Assembly (NCBI GenBank): GCA_041674805.1
Contig: JBAYVA010000001.1
Span: 326,612 to 390,611 of the forward strand
Direction of reading: 5' to 3'
Length of the DNA stretch: 64,000 bases
Source of the DNA: Candidatus Magasanikiibacteriota bacterium
GTDB lineage: Bacteria > Patescibacteriota > Patescibacteriia > Magasanikbacterales > UBA922
Every line of letters begins with the position of its first letter. The first letter of the stretch is position 1. Below, one piece after another: positions 2,593 through 47,289 of this stretch. The notes under the pieces are model-generated. The model had not been told where the DNA came from and did no database searches. It worked only from the letters and a program-made list of their open reading frames with translations. A program made the position numbers and the translations under genes.

Positions 2593-4209
2593 GTGCTCAC
2601 CAAAAAACTAGAACAATACTTCAATTTCAAATCTTTTCGACCTGGTCAAGAAGAAATAGTCCAAGCTATTGTAAATGGACAAGATGTCATAGCCCTCATG
2701 CCTACTGGTGGTGGCAAATCTTTGTGCTACCAACTTCCTGCTTTAGCTAGTCAAAAAATGACTATCGTAATCTCCCCTCTTATCGCTCTGATGAAAGATC
2801 AAGTAGACAGTCTAAAAGCACGAGGACTCAATGCTGTACTTATCAACAGCTCATTGGATTTGCAAGAAATAAAAAGTTATCTAAAAGAAATAGCAGATGG
2901 TAAGACACACATTGTTTATCTAGCACCAGAAGGACTAAACAACAAATTACTACAAGATTTACTAAAAAAAATAAAAATAGATATTATTGCTATTGACGAA
3001 GCGCATTGTGTGTCACAATGGGGACATGATTTTCGTCCACAATATAGACTTATCAAAAATTTTATTGATTCTCTGCCAACACGACCTACTGTCACCGCTT
3101 TTACTGCCACAGCCACGCCAGAAGTCCGTGATGATATTATAAAAAATTTAGGATTAATCAAACCTCAAGTTTTCATACGTGGTTTCGATAGACCAAATCT
3201 GAAATTTTTTGTCAGAAAAAATCTAAAGAAAAAAGCTCGTGAACACGAAGTCCTACGACTAATAAAATCTATGCAAGGTTCTGGTATTGTCTATGCCCTT
3301 AGTCGCAAAGAAACCGAAAAAATTGCCAACTTTTTGAATGCCGAAAATATCAAAGCTGTAGCTTATCATGCTGGACTCTTGCCTGACGAAAGAAAAAAAG
3401 TCCAAGAAAAATTCATGGAAAATAGATTCAAAGTCATTGTTGCAACGGTTGCTTTTGGTATGGGCGTGGACAAAGCTGATATTCGCTTTGTTATTCACTC
3501 TGGCATGCCAAATAGTATGGAAGGTTATTATCAAGAAGCTGGACGTGCTGGACGTGATGGTGAAAAAGCTTATTGTATTCTTTTGCACAGTGGAGCTGAT
3601 GTCGGACTTCGTCATTTTTTCATCCGCAAAAGTCGAGAAGAAATGAAAAAACAAGGCAAAAATATAGCAGAGATAGAAAAAATTACCAATGCCCAATATG
3701 ACAAATTGGAAGCTATTACCAATTATGTTGAAAATAATAAATGTCGTAGAGATACAATCCTTAGCTATTTTTCTGATCCTGATGTCATTCGCATCCGTCA
3801 AAATGGTGGTTGTAACAATTGCGATATTTGTCTGAATTTTGAATGGGAAGAAATAAAAACCAAAGATACAAAAAAATCTCCAACTGTTTTTCAAAGTCTT
3901 TCCAATACGGTCCTTGAAAGTGTTCAAATGTACCAAGAAGGAAAAACGCTAGAACAAATTGCCAAAATACGTTCGCTCGGTGTTAATACCATTTTGCAAC
4001 ATTTAATACGCTGGTATGTAGAAGATGATGGCGAACTAAACATTGAAAATTTTGTTACAGTTGACGAAGAAAAACAAATTCTAAAAGCTATGAGTGAAGC
4101 TGAAGATTATACCAAGCTCTCCCCTATCAAAACAAAACTACCAGACAATATTAGTTATGAACAAATTAGATTAGTGATGGCGAAAATTCAGAAAATAAAG
4201 TTGTGGTAA
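2593..4209 (+). CDS. recQ: ATP-dependent DNA helicase RecQ
   Basis: GTG start. Walker A MPTGGGKSLCYQLPAL, DEAH box IDEAHCVSQWGHDFRPQY, RecQ C-terminal zinc-binding cysteines (CRRDTILSYF…CNNCDIC) and an HRDC-like tail. Confidence 0.85.
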   Translation: MLTKKLEQYFNFKSFRPGQEEIVQAIVNGQDVIALMPTGGGKSLCYQLPALASQKMTIVISPLIALMKDQVDSLKARGLNAVLINSSLDLQEIKSYLKEIADGKTHIVYLAPEGLNNKLLQDLLKKIKIDIIAIDEAHCVSQWGHDFRPQYRLIKNFIDSLPTRPTVTAFTATATPEVRDDIIKNLGLIKPQVFIRGFDRPNLKFFVRKNLKKKAREHEVLRLIKSMQGSGIVYALSRKETEKIANFLNAENIKAVAYHAGLLPDERKKVQEKFMENRFKVIVATVAFGMGVDKADIRFVIHSGMPNSMEGYYQEAGRAGRDGEKAYCILLHSGADVGLRHFFIRKSREEMKKQGKNIAEIEKITNAQYDKLEAITNYVENNKCRRDTILSYFSDPDVIRIRQNGGCNNCDICLNFEWEEIKTKDTKKSPTVFQSLSNTVLESVQMYQEGKTLEQIAKIRSLGVNTILQHLIRWYVEDDGELNIENFVTVDEEKQILKAMSEAEDYTKLSPIKTKLPDNISYEQIRLVMAKIQKIKLW

Positions 4210-6183: not shown

Positions 6184-6268
6184 TGCGGATAAGAAGATTC
6201 GAACTTCTATTTTTGATTACAAAAAAATTTTTTCTATAATCAACGTAATGCCATTATACTATACCCGC
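6184..6268 (-). tRNA. aberrant tRNA-like gene with a 14-nt insertion in the anticodon-loop region (identity unresolved; possible pseudo-tRNA)
   Basis: Reverse complement shows canonical acceptor GCGGGTA/TATCCGC, T8, D-loop AATGGCA with G18G19, G26 and T-arm AGAAG-TTCGAAT-CTTCT. Between the anticodon stem halves TTGAT…ATCAA lie 21 nt (tatagaaaaaatttttttgta) instead of 7. The arm can also fold as a 7-bp stem ttgatta/taatcaa with a 17-nt A6T7 loop. Confidence 0.45.
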
Positions 6269-27663: not shown

Positions 27664-27712
27664 AATTTTCATAATTATAATAAAAACATTTCCTCCCACA
27701 GCCCAAGGCGTG
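27664..27712 (+). repeat. GC-rich hairpin element sharing a 20-nt core with the tRNA-Ser locus repeat
   Basis: cccacagcccaaggcgtgct…cagcctggggctg. The core cccacagcccaaggcgtgct recurs as its reverse complement at 45269-45288. Confidence 0.45.
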
Positions 27713-27800
27713 CTAAGCAAGGCGGATCAGCCTGGGGCTGAAAAAATGAAAACATTAAAACAAAATTTTAGATAAAAATTGTTTTTATGTTCTTGTGTTT

Positions 27801-44423: not shown

Positions 44424-45185
44424 TTATTTTATTAATCCAGAAATTTTATAAAATATTTCACCTTGAATATTAGATTTTTTTACAAATCCAAATTTGCGAG
44501 AATCAAAACTCTCACTTCTATTATCACCCAAAACAAAATATTGATCTTGCTCTAGTTGTATAGAAACATCACCGACAGTATCTCCTTCTACATAAGATTC
44601 ATTCAATATTTGTCCATTTATCATAACTTTGTTATCTTTGATTTCTACTTTTTCTCCAGGAAGACCAATTATTCTTTTAATATGAAATGCTCCTTGTTCT
44701 GCTTTAGATTTGAATACCACGATATCTTCTCTAGCAAAATCCTGATTAATTTTGTCTACCAAAAGATAATCACCACTATTGTATGTAGGACTCATACTTA
44801 CTCCATTAACAAGAAAAGGAGTAAATACATAAAAACGAATAAAACTAACGATAATTATAGTAGAAATTATATTAAATAAAATAAATACTACATATATACT
44901 CAAAGATTTCTTCCAATTACACAAATAATATTTTTTGTAAAAGTAATGAAATACAAAAAATGTGACAACACTTATTAGAATACTATAAGAAAAACCAAGA
45001 CCTATAACATAAAAGATAGCTAAAAGAAATGCATTTACAAGCGCTACGATAAGATGAATTACAAATGACTTTTTATAAGTTAGATTTTCTATTTTGAAAA
45101 GTTTTGAAACTAAAAAAAGAAGACCAGCAAACAAAAAAAATGTAAATGCCAAAACAAATAAAATAAGAAAAATAATAAATTCCAT
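44424..45185 (-). CDS. lepB: signal peptidase I
   Basis: Catalytic Ser box GVSMSPTY, Lys box VVFKSK, IKRIIGLPGEKVE and GDNRSESFDSRKFG. It has an extended multi-TM N-terminus. Confidence 0.8.
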   Translation of the reverse strand: MEFIIFLILFVLAFTFFLFAGLLFLVSKLFKIENLTYKKSFVIHLIVALVNAFLLAIFYVIGLGFSYSILISVVTFFVFHYFYKKYYLCNWKKSLSIYVVFILFNIISTIIIVSFIRFYVFTPFLVNGVSMSPTYNSGDYLLVDKINQDFAREDIVVFKSKAEQGAFHIKRIIGLPGEKVEIKDNKVMINGQILNESYVEGDTVGDVSIQLEQDQYFVLGDNRSESFDSRKFGFVKKSNIQGEIFYKISGLIK

Positions 45186-45306
45186 AGTACTTTATTTAAA
45201 GTGTATGAATAAAAATTATTGGCGGAGAATGAGGGATTCTCCGCCCTAGGCGGACCAACCTCGCAAAGCACGCCTTGGGCTGTGGGCTGGCAAGGTTCTC
45301 AACTAG

Positions 45307-45393
45307 CGGAGAATGAGGGATTCGAACCCTCGATACGGTTTCCCGTATACCGCCTTTCCAAGGCGGCGCACTCGACCACTATGCGAACTCTCC
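45307..45393 (-). tRNA. tRNA-Ser (anticodon GGA), type II with long variable arm
   Basis: Reverse complement folds by hand as GGAGAGT acceptor, D-arm, anticodon stem CCGCC/GGCGG with loop TTGGAAA, variable-arm hairpin TATACGG-GAAA-CCGTATC, T-arm GAGGG-TTCGAAT-CCCTC and discriminator G. Confidence 0.85.
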
Positions 45394-45394
45394 A

Positions 45395-45661
45395 TTATTT
45401 ATTATTTTCTTCTAAAAAATTTTTTAACAAATATTTTAATCTTTCACGACCTTGTCCAGTCTTCAAAAACATTTCTTCAGCTTGTGCATCTTTTTTATTT
45501 AAAAATGCTTGATAATAAACCAATTTCCAAGGTCTTCCTTTCTTAGTAAATATTGAACCATCTCCACTATTATGTTCTTTCAATCTATTCTTCAAATCTT
45601 CTGTAAAACCAATATACTTTTTATTTAATTTATGACTATATAATATATAAACATAATACAT
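45395..45661 (-). CDS. GIY-YIG nuclease-domain protein (homing-endonuclease-like, 88 aa)
   Basis: MYYVYILYSHKLNKKYIGFTEDLKNRLKEHN… carries the canonical GIY-x10-YIG motif with the conserved R and E. The stop lies 1 nt from the tRNA-Ser 5' end. Confidence 0.75.
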   Translation of the reverse strand: MYYVYILYSHKLNKKYIGFTEDLKNRLKEHNSGDGSIFTKKGRPWKLVYYQAFLNKKDAQAEEMFLKTGQGRERLKYLLKNFLEENNK

Positions 45662-45730
45662 AATAAAAATATGATTAGTCTAGATAAACAACCACCTTTC
45701 TCCGCCCTAGGCGGACCAGCCTCGGGCTGG

Positions 45731-45765
45731 CAAGGCGGCGCACTCGACCACTATGCGAACTCTCC
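45731..45765 (-). pseudogene. partial duplicate of the tRNA-Ser 5' half (positions 1 to ~34)
   Basis: ggagagttcgcatagtggtcgagtgcgccgccttg matches the first 35 nt of the complete tRNA-Ser at 45393 exactly, then diverges into the GC-rich repeat ccagccc…tggtccgcctagggcggaga. Confidence 0.6.
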
Positions 45766-45859
45766 AGGTACTAGTTATAAAGTTTATAAAGTTTATAAAG
45801 TTAAAAGTTTATAAAGTACGTGAGAATTTTAACCAATTTAAGCCTTTTTGTCAATCTCA

Positions 45860-45888
45860 ATAAAAAACCCTGAAATATATCAGGGTCA
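45860..45888. terminator. bidirectional terminator hairpin flanked by ataaagttt repeats
   Basis: accctga-aatatat-cagggt stem with a T-run on the minus strand (downstream of the LOG gene). Both flanks carry (t)ataaagttt x4 direct repeats in inverted arrangement. Confidence 0.5.
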
Positions 45889-45933
45889 AATTACTTTATA
45901 ACTTTACAAACTTTATGAACTTTACAAACTACG

Positions 45934-47289
45934 TTACTTTCTAAACTCCTTTATCAAATCTATCGCGCTATCCACATTATCTACTATCTGATAAAGCTCA
46001 TCATCTTCATCCCCTGTTGTTTCAAACTTATGTACAAATATTTTTTTGATAAAAATATGAAGTGGTCCCCAAAATTCATGACCAAAAAGAATAACTGGAA
46101 TACGCTCCATTTTTTTGGTTTGAATAAGAGTCAATACTTCAAACAATTGATGCAAAGTACCAAAACCACCCGGAAAAAAGACAAATGCTTTTGATGGCGC
46201 GGTAATAATCAGCTTGCGAGTAAAAGGAAAATTGAAACTAATCGCTTTTTTGACATAAGCATTATAATTTTCTTTGACACCATGTTTCATATTGATACCA
46301 ATAGAATCACCTCCCATTTCAAAAGCACCTTTGTTGGCAGCTTCCATAATTCCAGTACCACCACCAGTCACAGTAGCAAATTTGTTTTCAGCCAAAGCTC
46401 GACCAAGTTGGTAAGCTGATTCATAATACGGTGAATCTTTTTTCATAGATCTCGTACCAAGCACAGTTACATCTTCAACAAGGCCTGTCAAAAATTCAAA
46501 GCCTTCTACTAGCTCAGCCATGATTTTGAAAATTTTCCAATCCGTACCACCAGTTTCACAACGAAAATTGGTAGGGTCAAGTTCACAAATATTCTCTATA
46601 TCTTTTTGATCTTTGATAAATTCAAAAGCTTCTTCGGCTGTTTCTACTATGTGCCATCTATCTACATCTTTGTTTTTGATAGAACCAAATTTCATAGACT
46701 TTTCTTTTACAAAATCTACCAAAGGTTGCCAAAATTCTTTTCCAACCAAAATTATTGGTGAATGTTGCATATGTCCCAATTCCATCAAATCTACTACTTC
46801 AAAAAATTCATCCATCGTACCAAAACCGCCAGGAAAAAGCACAAAAGCATTGGACGGTGAAATAAGCATTACTTTACGAGTAAAGAAATAATAAAAAGCC
46901 GTCGAACTTTTTACGTAAGGATTGATACGTTGTTCAAAAGGAAGCTGAATATTTATACCAACAGAATCTCCACCTGCTTCAAAAGCTCCTTTGTTGGCAG
47001 CTTCCATAACGCCTGGTCCACCACCTGTCAAAGTCGTGAATCCACCTTTGGCCAACAAAGCACCAAGCTTTTCAGCCACTTGATAATATTTGTTTTCCGG
47101 TTTCAAACGAGCAGAACCCAAGATAGTTACTTCATTTTTCAATGATGACAAAAATTGATAACCTTCAACAAACTCAGACATGATACGAAAAATACGCCAT
47201 GACTCACGAAAATCTCCACTTTCATTCAAAGAATAACTAAAATCTTTTTTGGCGTTTTTTTGAATTTTTTCTATTGTTTCTTTTTTCAT
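45934..47289 (-). CDS. tandem-LOG (TIGR00730-like) fusion protein
   Basis: Two complete LOG-family domains, each with TGGGPGVMEA…PGGFGT(M/L)(D/H)E(F/L)FE motifs. Confidence 0.75.
   Translation of the reverse strand: MKKETIEKIQKNAKKDFSYSLNESGDFRESWRIFRIMSEFVEGYQFLSSLKNEVTILGSARLKPENKYYQVAEKLGALLAKGGFTTLTGGGPGVMEAANKGAFEAGGDSVGINIQLPFEQRINPYVKSSTAFYYFFTRKVMLISPSNAFVLFPGGFGTMDEFFEVVDLMELGHMQHSPIILVGKEFWQPLVDFVKEKSMKFGSIKNKDVDRWHIVETAEEAFEFIKDQKDIENICELDPTNFRCETGGTDWKIFKIMAELVEGFEFLTGLVEDVTVLGTRSMKKDSPYYESAYQLGRALAENKFATVTGGGTGIMEAANKGAFEMGGDSIGINMKHGVKENYNAYVKKAISFNFPFTRKLIITAPSKAFVFFPGGFGTLHQLFEVLTLIQTKKMERIPVILFGHEFWGPLHIFIKKIFVHKFETTGDEDDELYQIVDNVDSAIDLIKEFRK

Follow-up and report, generated by a model that had tools for sequence, protein, structure and literature searches.

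A tRNA-Ser gene of a Patescibacteria bacterium as the probable target of a small selfish GIY-YIG element

How does a nuclease gene come to lie one base from a complete transfer RNA (tRNA) gene, with pieces of that same tRNA on either side of it? The question is raised by a locus on contig JBAYVA010000001.1 of a Candidatus Magasanikiibacteriota bacterium, within a stretch of 64,000 nucleotides (nt; positions 326,612 to 390,611, 64 kb) that is referred to here as the window. An earlier note, made from the letters alone, had described a complete tRNA-Ser(GGA) gene, copies of the tRNA 5′ half and 3′ end, two copies of a GC-rich repeat, as well as an open reading frame (ORF) for a GIY-YIG protein of 88 amino acids (aa) whose stop codon falls 1 nt from the tRNA. 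It proposed that these were the scar of a tRNA-targeting mobile element, left either by a homing-endonuclease-driven insertion (or duplication) in the anticodon loop or by a degraded integrative element or intron. Repeat search, ARAGORN, Rfam and Pfam recovered all of the listed features, none of them displaced by more than 1-2 nt. On balance, it is probable in our view that a small selfish GIY-YIG element from a large Patescibacteria family has invaded the tRNA-Ser(GGA) gene at this locus. The present analysis adds the size of this family, the identification of the GC-rich repeat as a covarying pair of hairpins, and the finding that the intact tRNA is part of the design of the element and no bystander.

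The locus and its empty site in relatives

All features of the locus read on the minus strand, in the order promoter, tRNA nt 1-35, hairpin pair, 9 tRNA nt, spacer, ORF, complete tRNA, linker, composite hairpin and tRNA 3′ end. They are listed below with their coordinates in the window, followed by a related element found elsewhere in it; L091 and L001 are loci of relatives that are compared to the window further on.

45826-45854, minus strand: sigma-70-like promoter, TTGACA-17-TAAAAT, 11 of 12 matches
45731-45765, minus strand: copy of tRNA-Ser(GGA) nt 1-35, 35/35 identical to the complete tRNA; its last base is anticodon base 34
45701-45730, minus strand: hairpin pair CCAGCCcgaGGCTGG TCCGCCtagGGCGGA, between anticodon-loop positions 34 and 35; missing at L091
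45692-45700, minus strand: tRNA remnant GAAAGGTGG, 9 nt, equal to anticodon-loop positions 35-38 and the 3′ stem strand
45662-45691, minus strand: AT-rich spacer from the tRNA remnant to the ORF start codon
45395-45661, minus strand: ORF for a predicted 88-aa GIY-YIG nuclease, UPF0213/SLX1-like, catalytic domain only (Pfam, fold, homologues)
45306-45393, minus strand: complete tRNA-Ser(GGA) (ARAGORN; Rfam tRNA, 56.4 bits)
45291-45305, minus strand: linker TAGTTGAGAACCTTG, a relic of the tRNA 5′ end (TGAGA) joined to the 5′ side of the anticodon loop (ACCTTG, of L091/L001 type)
45240-45290, minus strand: composite hairpin element, 51 nt, a hairpin pair with a 21-nt insertion nested in the loop of the first hairpin
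45222-45239, minus strand: tRNA 3′-end copy GAATCCCTCATTCTCCGC, from T-loop position 57 to the discriminator base, an 18-nt exact match
45211-45245, minus strand: terminator-like hairpin GGCGGAGAA-tccctca-TTCTCCGCC with a T-rich tail; DNA fold z-score -4.5
27691-27741, plus strand: second composite hairpin element, intergenic, with the 20-nt CCCACAGCCCAAGGCGTGCT in common with 45290-45240

The repeats between these features were located precisely. A 36-nt exact direct repeat (45731-45766 and 45359-45394) comprises tRNA nt 1-35 together with one preceding T, and an 18-nt exact repeat (45222-45239 and 45306-45323) comprises the tRNA 3′ end. Both tRNA copies were confirmed by BLAST, which found no further copies of the ORF or of tRNA fragments in the window. 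The two GC-rich copies (45237-45263 and 45698-45724) share 27 nt at 96% identity, and the 19-mer GGTCCGCCTAGGGCGGAGA occurs twice in the window compared to 0 times in 100 shuffles.

The copy of the tRNA 5′ half had been described as ending at the GC-rich repeat. While its nt 1-35 are indeed exact, the tRNA does not end there: its sequence resumes with GAAAGGTGG after the 30-nt hairpins, which places the hairpin pair as an insertion within the loop of a truncated tRNA copy. Each of the two hairpins consists of a 6-bp stem and a 3-nt loop. When the region was folded as RNA, the GAAAGGTGG remnant paired with the 5′ strand of the anticodon stem, such that the stem closed around both hairpins. Neither the variable arm nor the 5′ half of the T arm is present in the interrupted copy, whose parts cannot total one complete tRNA. 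We conclude that the nt 1-35 copy is the displaced 5′ part of the invaded gene and that the 18-nt copy is the displaced 3′ part of an invaded copy. The complete tRNA-Ser(GGA), which a single base separates from the ORF stop codon, is predicted to be the functional copy. Compared to the tRNA of L091 it carries compensatory changes that preserve pairing in the anticodon stem; the remnant has the GGTGG of L091 and the complete tRNA has GGCGG. Beyond the complete tRNA, the linker TAGTTGAGAACCTTG is homologous to GATTGGAGAACCTTG of L001, and the terminator, whose hairpin spans 45245-45221, combines the last part of the hairpin element with the 3′ tRNA fragment. This part of the window looks as if two hairpin pairs, one in the anticodon loop and one in the T loop, had been joined by a deletion.

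Upstream of the locus lies a gene for a 451-aa LOG-family protein (Pfam Lysine_decarbox). In relatives this gene is likewise followed by tRNA-Ser(GGA), mostly without a GIY-YIG ORF. One of them, L091, represents the empty site of the window, with a neighbouring protein that is 92% identical, the same promoter and an uninterrupted tRNA, and with neither hairpins nor ORF. Alignment of the window with L091 was near-perfect until ...CCTTG (tRNA nt 35), where the two sequences diverge. Because L091 has the same promoter before an intact tRNA, we take it to be the native promoter of the tRNA gene; in the window it now precedes the 5′ tRNA fragment, the ORF and the complete tRNA.

Further relatives located the junction at the same base. 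L001 is a filled site, with a 98%-identical ORF and the gene order of the window. L093 was identical to it over 2,932 of 2,932 nt, the identity stopping exactly at tRNA nt 35, from where L093 goes on as an intact tRNA. The contig of L092 also ends at tRNA nt 35, which is how assembly graphs behave at polymorphic sites. With L091 and L093 as empty sites, the insertion is polymorphic, and filled and empty alleles coexist. The insertion point in the orthologous tRNA gene (last nt before the hairpins, counted linearly) was nt 35 in the window, L001 and L116, nt 14 in L095 and nt 17 in L099. As the insertion points differ within one orthologous gene, these are independent insertions.

The divergence of the ORF was compared to that of its surroundings in one genome pair, the window and L001. 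The neighbouring LOG-family gene showed 79.9% nucleotide identity with a synonymous divergence (dS) of 1.18, and rsmB showed 79.8% nucleotide identity, while the GIY-YIG ORF showed 94.0% with a dS of 0.109. The approximately tenfold lower dS of the ORF indicates a recent move, into one of the two genomes long after their lineages had split. The tRNA after the ORF was 67% identical, the window and L001 having different tRNA-Ser(GGA) sequences at this place. The ratio of nonsynonymous to synonymous divergence (dN/dS) of the ORF was 0.16, indicating that it codes for a protein under purifying selection. These figures suggest that the ORF has spread independently of the host genome. Together with the empty sites and with the recurrence of the architecture in ~90% of the loci described below, the contrast in dS (0.11 against 1.18) lends support to the earlier proposal of a homing-endonuclease-driven insertion into a tRNA gene.

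The DNA downstream of the tRNA was found to vary as well. It holds a signal-peptidase-like gene in the window (44424-45185) and rsmB directly in L001 and L094. In L093 this place is taken by a gene for a secreted-looking protein of 498 aa, and L091 and L139 have yet other genes. Since these are close relatives, the 3′ side of the tRNA is also a rearrangement hot spot.

The nuclease, its family and the hairpin pair

The product of the ORF matched the Pfam GIY-YIG family (PF01541) with 60.1 bits against a cut-off of 22.6 (E = 2.6e-16). A look-up for sequences identical to the window ORF gave no match, and the 98%-identical P0001 stood in for it. Residues Y3, Y5, G18, R26, H30 and E63 were invariant in 32 homologues, and the conserved catalytic set (the GIY Tyr, the YIG Tyr/Gly, the Arg and the metal-binding Glu) is present. 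By sequence, the nearest solved relatives were the UPF0213 proteins BH0048 and EF2693 (PDB 1zg2, 1ywl), followed by SLX1. An AlphaFold (AF2) model (predicted local distance difference test, pLDDT, 91.6) displayed the three-stranded sheet and helices of the GIY-YIG fold, and Foldseek matched it to BH0048 (1zg2) and the SLX1 nuclease domain, then to the I-TevI catalytic domain and UvrC. The best of these matches, UPF0213 and the SLX1 nuclease domain, gave a root-mean-square deviation of 1.8-2.1 Å over ~70 residues, with ~30% identity for SLX1. The catalytic domain takes up the whole of the 88 aa and leaves no room for a DNA-binding domain. These results support the prediction that the ORF product is a catalytic-domain-only nuclease of the UPF0213/SLX1 type.

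A scan of one genome per species, with 9 close sequences as query, found at least 516 relatives, and 80 loci were kept. All 80 came from metagenome genomes of the Patescibacteria type, some of which are mislabelled. A same-strand tRNA started between -45 and +130 nt from the ORF stop in 69 of the 76 loci with enough downstream sequence. Most of these 69 tRNAs were serine tRNAs (61), with anticodons GGA (17), GCT (15), TGA (15) and CGA (14); the others were Tyr (3), Thr (2), Asp (2) and Cys (1). The ORF often overlaps the tRNA, terminating on the TAG inside GCATAGTGG. At the other end of the ORF, a strict pair of adjoining 15-nt hairpins was present no more than 120 nt upstream in 70 of the 78 loci with enough upstream sequence. 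The element is composed of a 30-nt GC-rich hairpin pair, a few nt of the interrupted tRNA, an AT-rich spacer, a GIY-YIG ORF of ~85 aa and, directly behind its stop codon, a complete tRNA gene.

Junctions were analysed in a subset of 60 loci with an ORF and an adjacent tRNA, of which 56 had the strict hairpin pair. In 42 of these 56 loci the hairpins are preceded by a sequence that repeats the adjacent tRNA, starting at its nt 1, with at least 80% identity; in 29 the match is perfect, although the tRNAs themselves differ from locus to locus. The copies ended at nt 12-16 (30 loci), 20-23 (6), 35-36 (5) or 57 (1), which correspond to the D, anticodon and T loops. The window, with its insertion at 34/35, represents the anticodon loop; insertion elsewhere is mostly in the D loop and sometimes in the T loop. 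The hairpins are followed by 2-12 more nt of the tRNA, most commonly 6, and the distance from the hairpin pair to the ATG, with this remnant included, ranged from 9 to 39 nt across the family.

Several variants of this plan were observed. L015 is its mirror image, with a complete tRNA-Tyr and terminator, the ORF, GAGGTTC, the hairpins, and then the tRNA 3′ end followed by the same terminator. L073, L059 and L055 have the fragment, the hairpins, a short spacer and the complete tRNA with no ORF between them, as would result if the ORF decayed. Direct repeats of loop flank, hairpins and loop flank enclose the ORF together with a foreign tRNA in L001 and L018. The remainder of the invaded tRNA lies downstream, and in L001 it has another hairpin pair in its T loop. 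The window belongs to this repeat-bounded type. A neighbour-joining tree of 65 ORFs showed no more than loose clustering by insertion position and tRNA type, where the automatic position labels are unreliable. No description of a tRNA-linked arrangement of GIY-YIG ORF and hairpins was found in the searchable literature.

Two further arrangements were noted among the family loci. L064 (1355-2350) carries two complete elements in tandem, one before tRNA-Ser(TGA) and one before tRNA-Ser(GCT), and fragment, hairpin pair and ORF are present separately in both; several serine tRNA genes of one genome can therefore be invaded. In L026 (~2430-2520), L089 (~2440-2495) and L087 (~2500-2535), a second copy of the 3′ end, from the T loop onwards, is found downstream of the tRNA-Ser gene behind a different, longer insert, and L026 has an inverted T-arm copy between the tRNA and this second 3′ end. 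These second 3′-end copies may belong to another type of element that uses the T loop.

A structural scan detected 123 hairpin pairs in 812 kb of loci compared to 0 in shuffled sequence. Their consensus is YSSGCC-CNA-GGCSSR followed by YSSGCC-TNG-GGCSSR. Changes on both sides of the stem were found at 11 of the 12 stem positions (70 distinct pairs), in a set that had been preselected for pairing, so that the percentage of paired positions is circular whereas the variety of pair types is not. The 30-mer was also considered as a single long palindrome; its covariation in that register was no greater than in shuffles, and the two-hairpin model holds. The two loops are of complementary type, such that the pair reads alike on both strands, which argues for a role as DNA. 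The mismatches in stems of the ORF strand (G-T 6, A-C 1) give a weak hint against a DNA role and are too few to decide between RNA and DNA folding.

Nearly all hairpin copies in the family loci are tied to tRNA genes beside an ORF. Solo pairs were also seen in the D, anticodon and T loops of tRNA fragments that have no ORF. Other pairs are nested in the loop of another hairpin, namely in L026 and in the window at 45240-45290 and 27691-27741. The window has three hairpin-pair copies in its 64 kb. That at 27691-27741, a GC-rich composite of 51 nt, lies between two unrelated genes on the same strand, with no tRNA or GIY-YIG ORF nearby, and has a nested insert of 20 nt in common with 45240-45290. 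The base 3′ of the hairpin pair was a purine in 82 of 90 contexts, 43 of which read GA.

Distant homologues retained parts of this plan. L173 (58% identity) has the same arrangement on a tRNA-Glu, with the hairpins at 35/36, and in L175 the order is complete tRNA-Gln, a hairpin pair of another sequence and the ORF. The ORF of L172 (55% identity, Omnitrophota) is carried by a group I intron (80.7 bits) that interrupts a tRNA-Met-like gene in its anticodon loop, and an intron ancestry is therefore conceivable. At this locus (L172 1390-2475) the intron holds a PD-(D/E)XK ORF in addition to the GIY-YIG ORF, and the tRNA-Met-like gene also has, between its D arm and its anticodon stem, two long hairpins that together measure ~66 nt. 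A phage origin was considered and rejected, as the family had only 8 hits in viral contigs, all at 43% identity or less.

Explanations for the element and its spread

The best reading of these data is that the element is selfish and intron-less, targets tRNA-Ser genes and acts in the manner of a free-standing homing endonuclease gene for which regenerating the tRNA gene takes the place of splicing. Insertion into the loop of a resident tRNA gene would leave the promoter and the 5′ part upstream, and an intact tRNA would be regenerated or delivered downstream of the ORF. With this intact tRNA downstream, the host retains its serine tRNA. The ORF would most likely be transcribed as a leader from the tRNA promoter, and cleavage by RNase P at the tRNA 5′ end could free the ORF transcript; the promoter upstream of the fragment and the terminator after the 3′ fragment provide a frame for such joint expression of ORF and tRNA. 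Spread may take a homing-like course, in which the nuclease would break an uninvaded tRNA gene and the invaded copy would serve for repair via tRNA homology, recreating the duplicated 5′ part. In the variants represented by L001, L018 and the window, the unit inserted would be the whole cassette, bounded by repeats of the hairpin pair and its loop flanks. The hairpin pair could be a folded nucleic acid, probably DNA, that is recognised by a structure-specific nuclease, and its presence would disrupt the target in the invaded copy.

Known systems share several of these properties. Homing endonuclease genes are typically present or absent at a conserved target in close relatives, as is the window element. 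Like the intron-encoded GIY-YIG endonucleases, among them I-TevI and the products of ORFs within tRNA anticodon-loop group I introns, it combines the catalytic fold with a conserved target gene and an insertion in the anticodon loop; unlike the intron-encoded enzymes, it has neither a ribozyme nor a DNA-binding domain, and an intact tRNA copy replaces splicing.

A free-standing counterpart from the tRNA gene cluster of phages T4/T6 is SegB, a protein of ~220 aa that includes a DNA-binding region. SegB belongs to the GIY-YIG enzymes; it cuts in tRNA genes (at a T-psi-C motif) and homes, together with neighbouring tRNA genes, into alleles without it (PMC2330249). Breaks made by SegB lead to recombination-dependent duplication of a segment with a full tRNA gene (PMC13096335). 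SegB and the window element are alike in being GIY-YIG nuclease genes among tRNA genes. They differ in that the hosts of SegB are phages, whereas the window ORF is chromosomal, of 88 aa, and has the catalytic domain only. The SegB papers describe neither a hairpin pair nor a fixed order of 5′ fragment, ORF and intact tRNA, both of which the window element has.

In rRNA genes of bacteria from the candidate phyla radiation (CPR), GIY-YIG ORFs occur in insertions belonging neither to the group I nor to the group II introns, and most of the insertions lie at the top or the base of a stem-loop (PMC11270868). That study was confined to rRNA genes and nowhere mentions tRNA (PMC11270868). The window element resembles these insertions in its host group, in a GIY-YIG ORF outside introns, and in its place in a stem-loop of a structural RNA gene.

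Several points weigh against the homing-like reading. All of the DNA comes from metagenome assemblies, and cleavage by the 88-aa protein is a prediction. Known GIY-YIG homing endonucleases are defined by two domains, one catalytic and one for DNA binding, and the window ORF has only the first. To our knowledge, every characterised GIY-YIG homing endonuclease has a separate DNA-binding domain; an 88-aa protein that lacks one would therefore not be expected to home sequence-specifically by itself. The intact tRNA by the ORF keeps the presumed target, which leaves self-cleavage to be explained. Nor does simple homing explain the hairpin pair at the junctions, the 2-12 trailing tRNA nt, or the solo and nested 30-nt hairpin pairs. 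In L001 and L018, the ORF-adjacent tRNA differs from the invaded one, the remainder of which lies behind a second hairpin pair; this layout fits insertion of a repeat-bounded cassette, or recombination between hairpins, better than plain gene conversion. Finally, a protein that benefits the host could also show a low dN/dS and a wide distribution.

A bolder and less probable proposal unites the hairpin pair with the SLX1-like mini-nuclease in one mobile system that targets structure, of a kind for which we know of no description. The nuclease would recognise and open the tips of DNA stem-loops (tRNA arms and its own hairpins), and the pair would be copied into the break, either alone or with the ORF. 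The element would spare its host by a regenerated or co-delivered intact tRNA gene in place of splicing, and in this sense would be an intron-less descendant of intron-encoded tRNA homing endonucleases. UPF0213/COG2827 proteins (BH0048, EF2693) and the SLX1 nuclease domain are the best matches to the window protein, being of similar size and consisting of the catalytic domain alone. SLX1, a eukaryotic protein, cuts branched DNA. It has an SLX4 partner and a RING domain, whereas the window protein has neither. We know of no function assigned to the bacterial UPF0213 proteins, and a link between UPF0213 and tRNA genes was not found in the searchable literature.

In a related alternative, which we consider rather unlikely, mobility would reside in the hairpin pair itself, which the SLX1-like nuclease would transfer in trans to DNA stem-loop tips, among them those of tRNA-gene arms and of the pair's own loops, with the ORF and tRNA as a master copy in the manner of RAYT and REPIN. 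REPIN-RAYT systems and the very small dispersed repeats of cyanobacteria consist of short palindromic doublets with one nuclease or transposase gene, and both show nested hairpin insertions. The window family has the same palindromic doublet beside a single nuclease gene (70/78 loci), and nested copies in hairpin loops (L026, 45240-45290 and 27691-27741 in the window). Solo pairs in the D, anticodon and T loops of ORF-less tRNA fragments, one copy away from any tRNA (27691-27741), and a protein that is nearest to the structure-specific SLX1 also favour this alternative, as do the distant homologues with a differently sequenced hairpin pair beside the ORF. Moreover, insertion occurs 5′ of a purine (82/90, with 43 GA) and at several loop positions, which indicates recognition of structure rather than sequence. 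However, RAYT belongs to the HUH Y1 transposases and REPINs occur in hundreds of copies, whereas the enzyme here is of the GIY-YIG type and the copies are few (three in 64 kb) and, in the family loci, nearly all tied to tRNA genes beside an ORF; pairs away from tRNA genes are rare. No target-site duplication was seen at the insertions, and GIY-YIG enzymes hydrolyse DNA without rejoining it, so that a ligation or copying step would have to be invented.

It is improbable that the ORF is a domesticated host nuclease co-transcribed with tRNA-Ser, the fragments and hairpins being old debris or a regulatory structure. The dN/dS of 0.16 is compatible with such a gene, as are the occurrence of the family in hundreds of species, the constant orientation and spacing to the tRNA, and the chromosomal UPF0213 proteins of many bacteria. 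Nevertheless, presence and absence differ among near-identical strains, most relatives with the same gene order are without the ORF, and a single orthologous gene has three insertion points. The ORF dS is tenfold below that of its neighbour, ORF-less derivatives exist, and one genome can carry several invaded tRNA-Ser genes, such as the tandem pair of L064.

The remaining alternatives were both raised by the earlier note and fared poorly. A scar of a lost integrase-type integrative element or prophage, with the tRNA gene as its attachment site, is very improbable. Partial tRNA copies do stand on either side of the locus, with 35 nt from the 5′ part and 18 nt from the 3′ end, and the DNA downstream of the tRNA differs among relatives. 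However, integrase sites duplicate the 3′ part of a tRNA and not nt 1-35, whereas the main repeat here is the 5′ 35 nt. No integrase was found in or beside the ~490-nt insert, in which the GIY-YIG ORF is the sole family-matched ORF; for lack of a recombinase, the locus is not an integrase island. Such a scar would also leave unexplained why a small architecture with a GIY-YIG ORF recurs in ~90% of the loci.

An intron or split tRNA (the fragment, hairpins and distant 3′ part being spliced into a second tRNA-Ser, or the ORF lying in a degenerate group I intron) can practically be discounted. In its favour are the position of the insertion within the anticodon loop, the ability of the remnant to pair as an anticodon stem that encloses the hairpins, the L172 homologue (55% identical) inside a tRNA group I intron, and the non-intron insertions of CPR rRNA genes that code for GIY-YIG proteins (PMC11270868). 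Against it, an Rfam search for group I/II introns and all other families, at E up to 10 across 44800-46200, revealed no intron core or ribozyme and scored only the tRNA; the same Intron_gpI model detects the intron of L172. The interrupted copy has no variable arm and is missing the T arm's 5′ half, the insert holds a complete tRNA of the same anticodon that makes an archaeal-type split reading unnecessary, and the fragment is only 12-23 nt in most family members.

If confirmed, the homing-like reading would account for many Patescibacteria genes that are annotated as 'GIY-YIG nuclease family protein' and for many tRNA pseudo-fragments of the same genomes, and would serve as a warning that the tRNA-Ser loci of these genomes are mosaic. 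Homing endonuclease genes normally persist in essential genes by way of self-splicing introns or inteins. An intact tRNA copy with a borrowed tRNA promoter would be a third way for such genes to be harmless. The 85-aa nuclease and its defined 30-nt hairpin partner would be directly testable for structure-specific cutting, and would offer a natural case for asking how small bacterial UPF0213 proteins act.

Further repeats and an unusual tRNA gene in the window

The region at 45775-45930 contains AT-rich repeats, both direct and inverted, whose unit is (T)ATAAAGTT/AACTTTAT. They border the upstream gene's terminator and the promoter of the tRNA, and repeats of a similar 'cataaagt' type are found at the matching place in L001, L091, L094 and L139. 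L091 has ~235 extra nt (3935-4170) between this terminator and the tRNA promoter that are missing from the window.

A tRNA-like gene at 6184-6268 (minus strand), beside tRNA-Thr(CGT), has a 21-nt anticodon loop, TATAGAAAAAATTTTTTTGTA, that holds an AT palindrome. ARAGORN reported it as tRNA-??? with a 4-base anticodon, and it scored 51.5 bits with the Rfam tRNA model. It could be a tRNA with a short anticodon-loop insertion, or a pseudogene.

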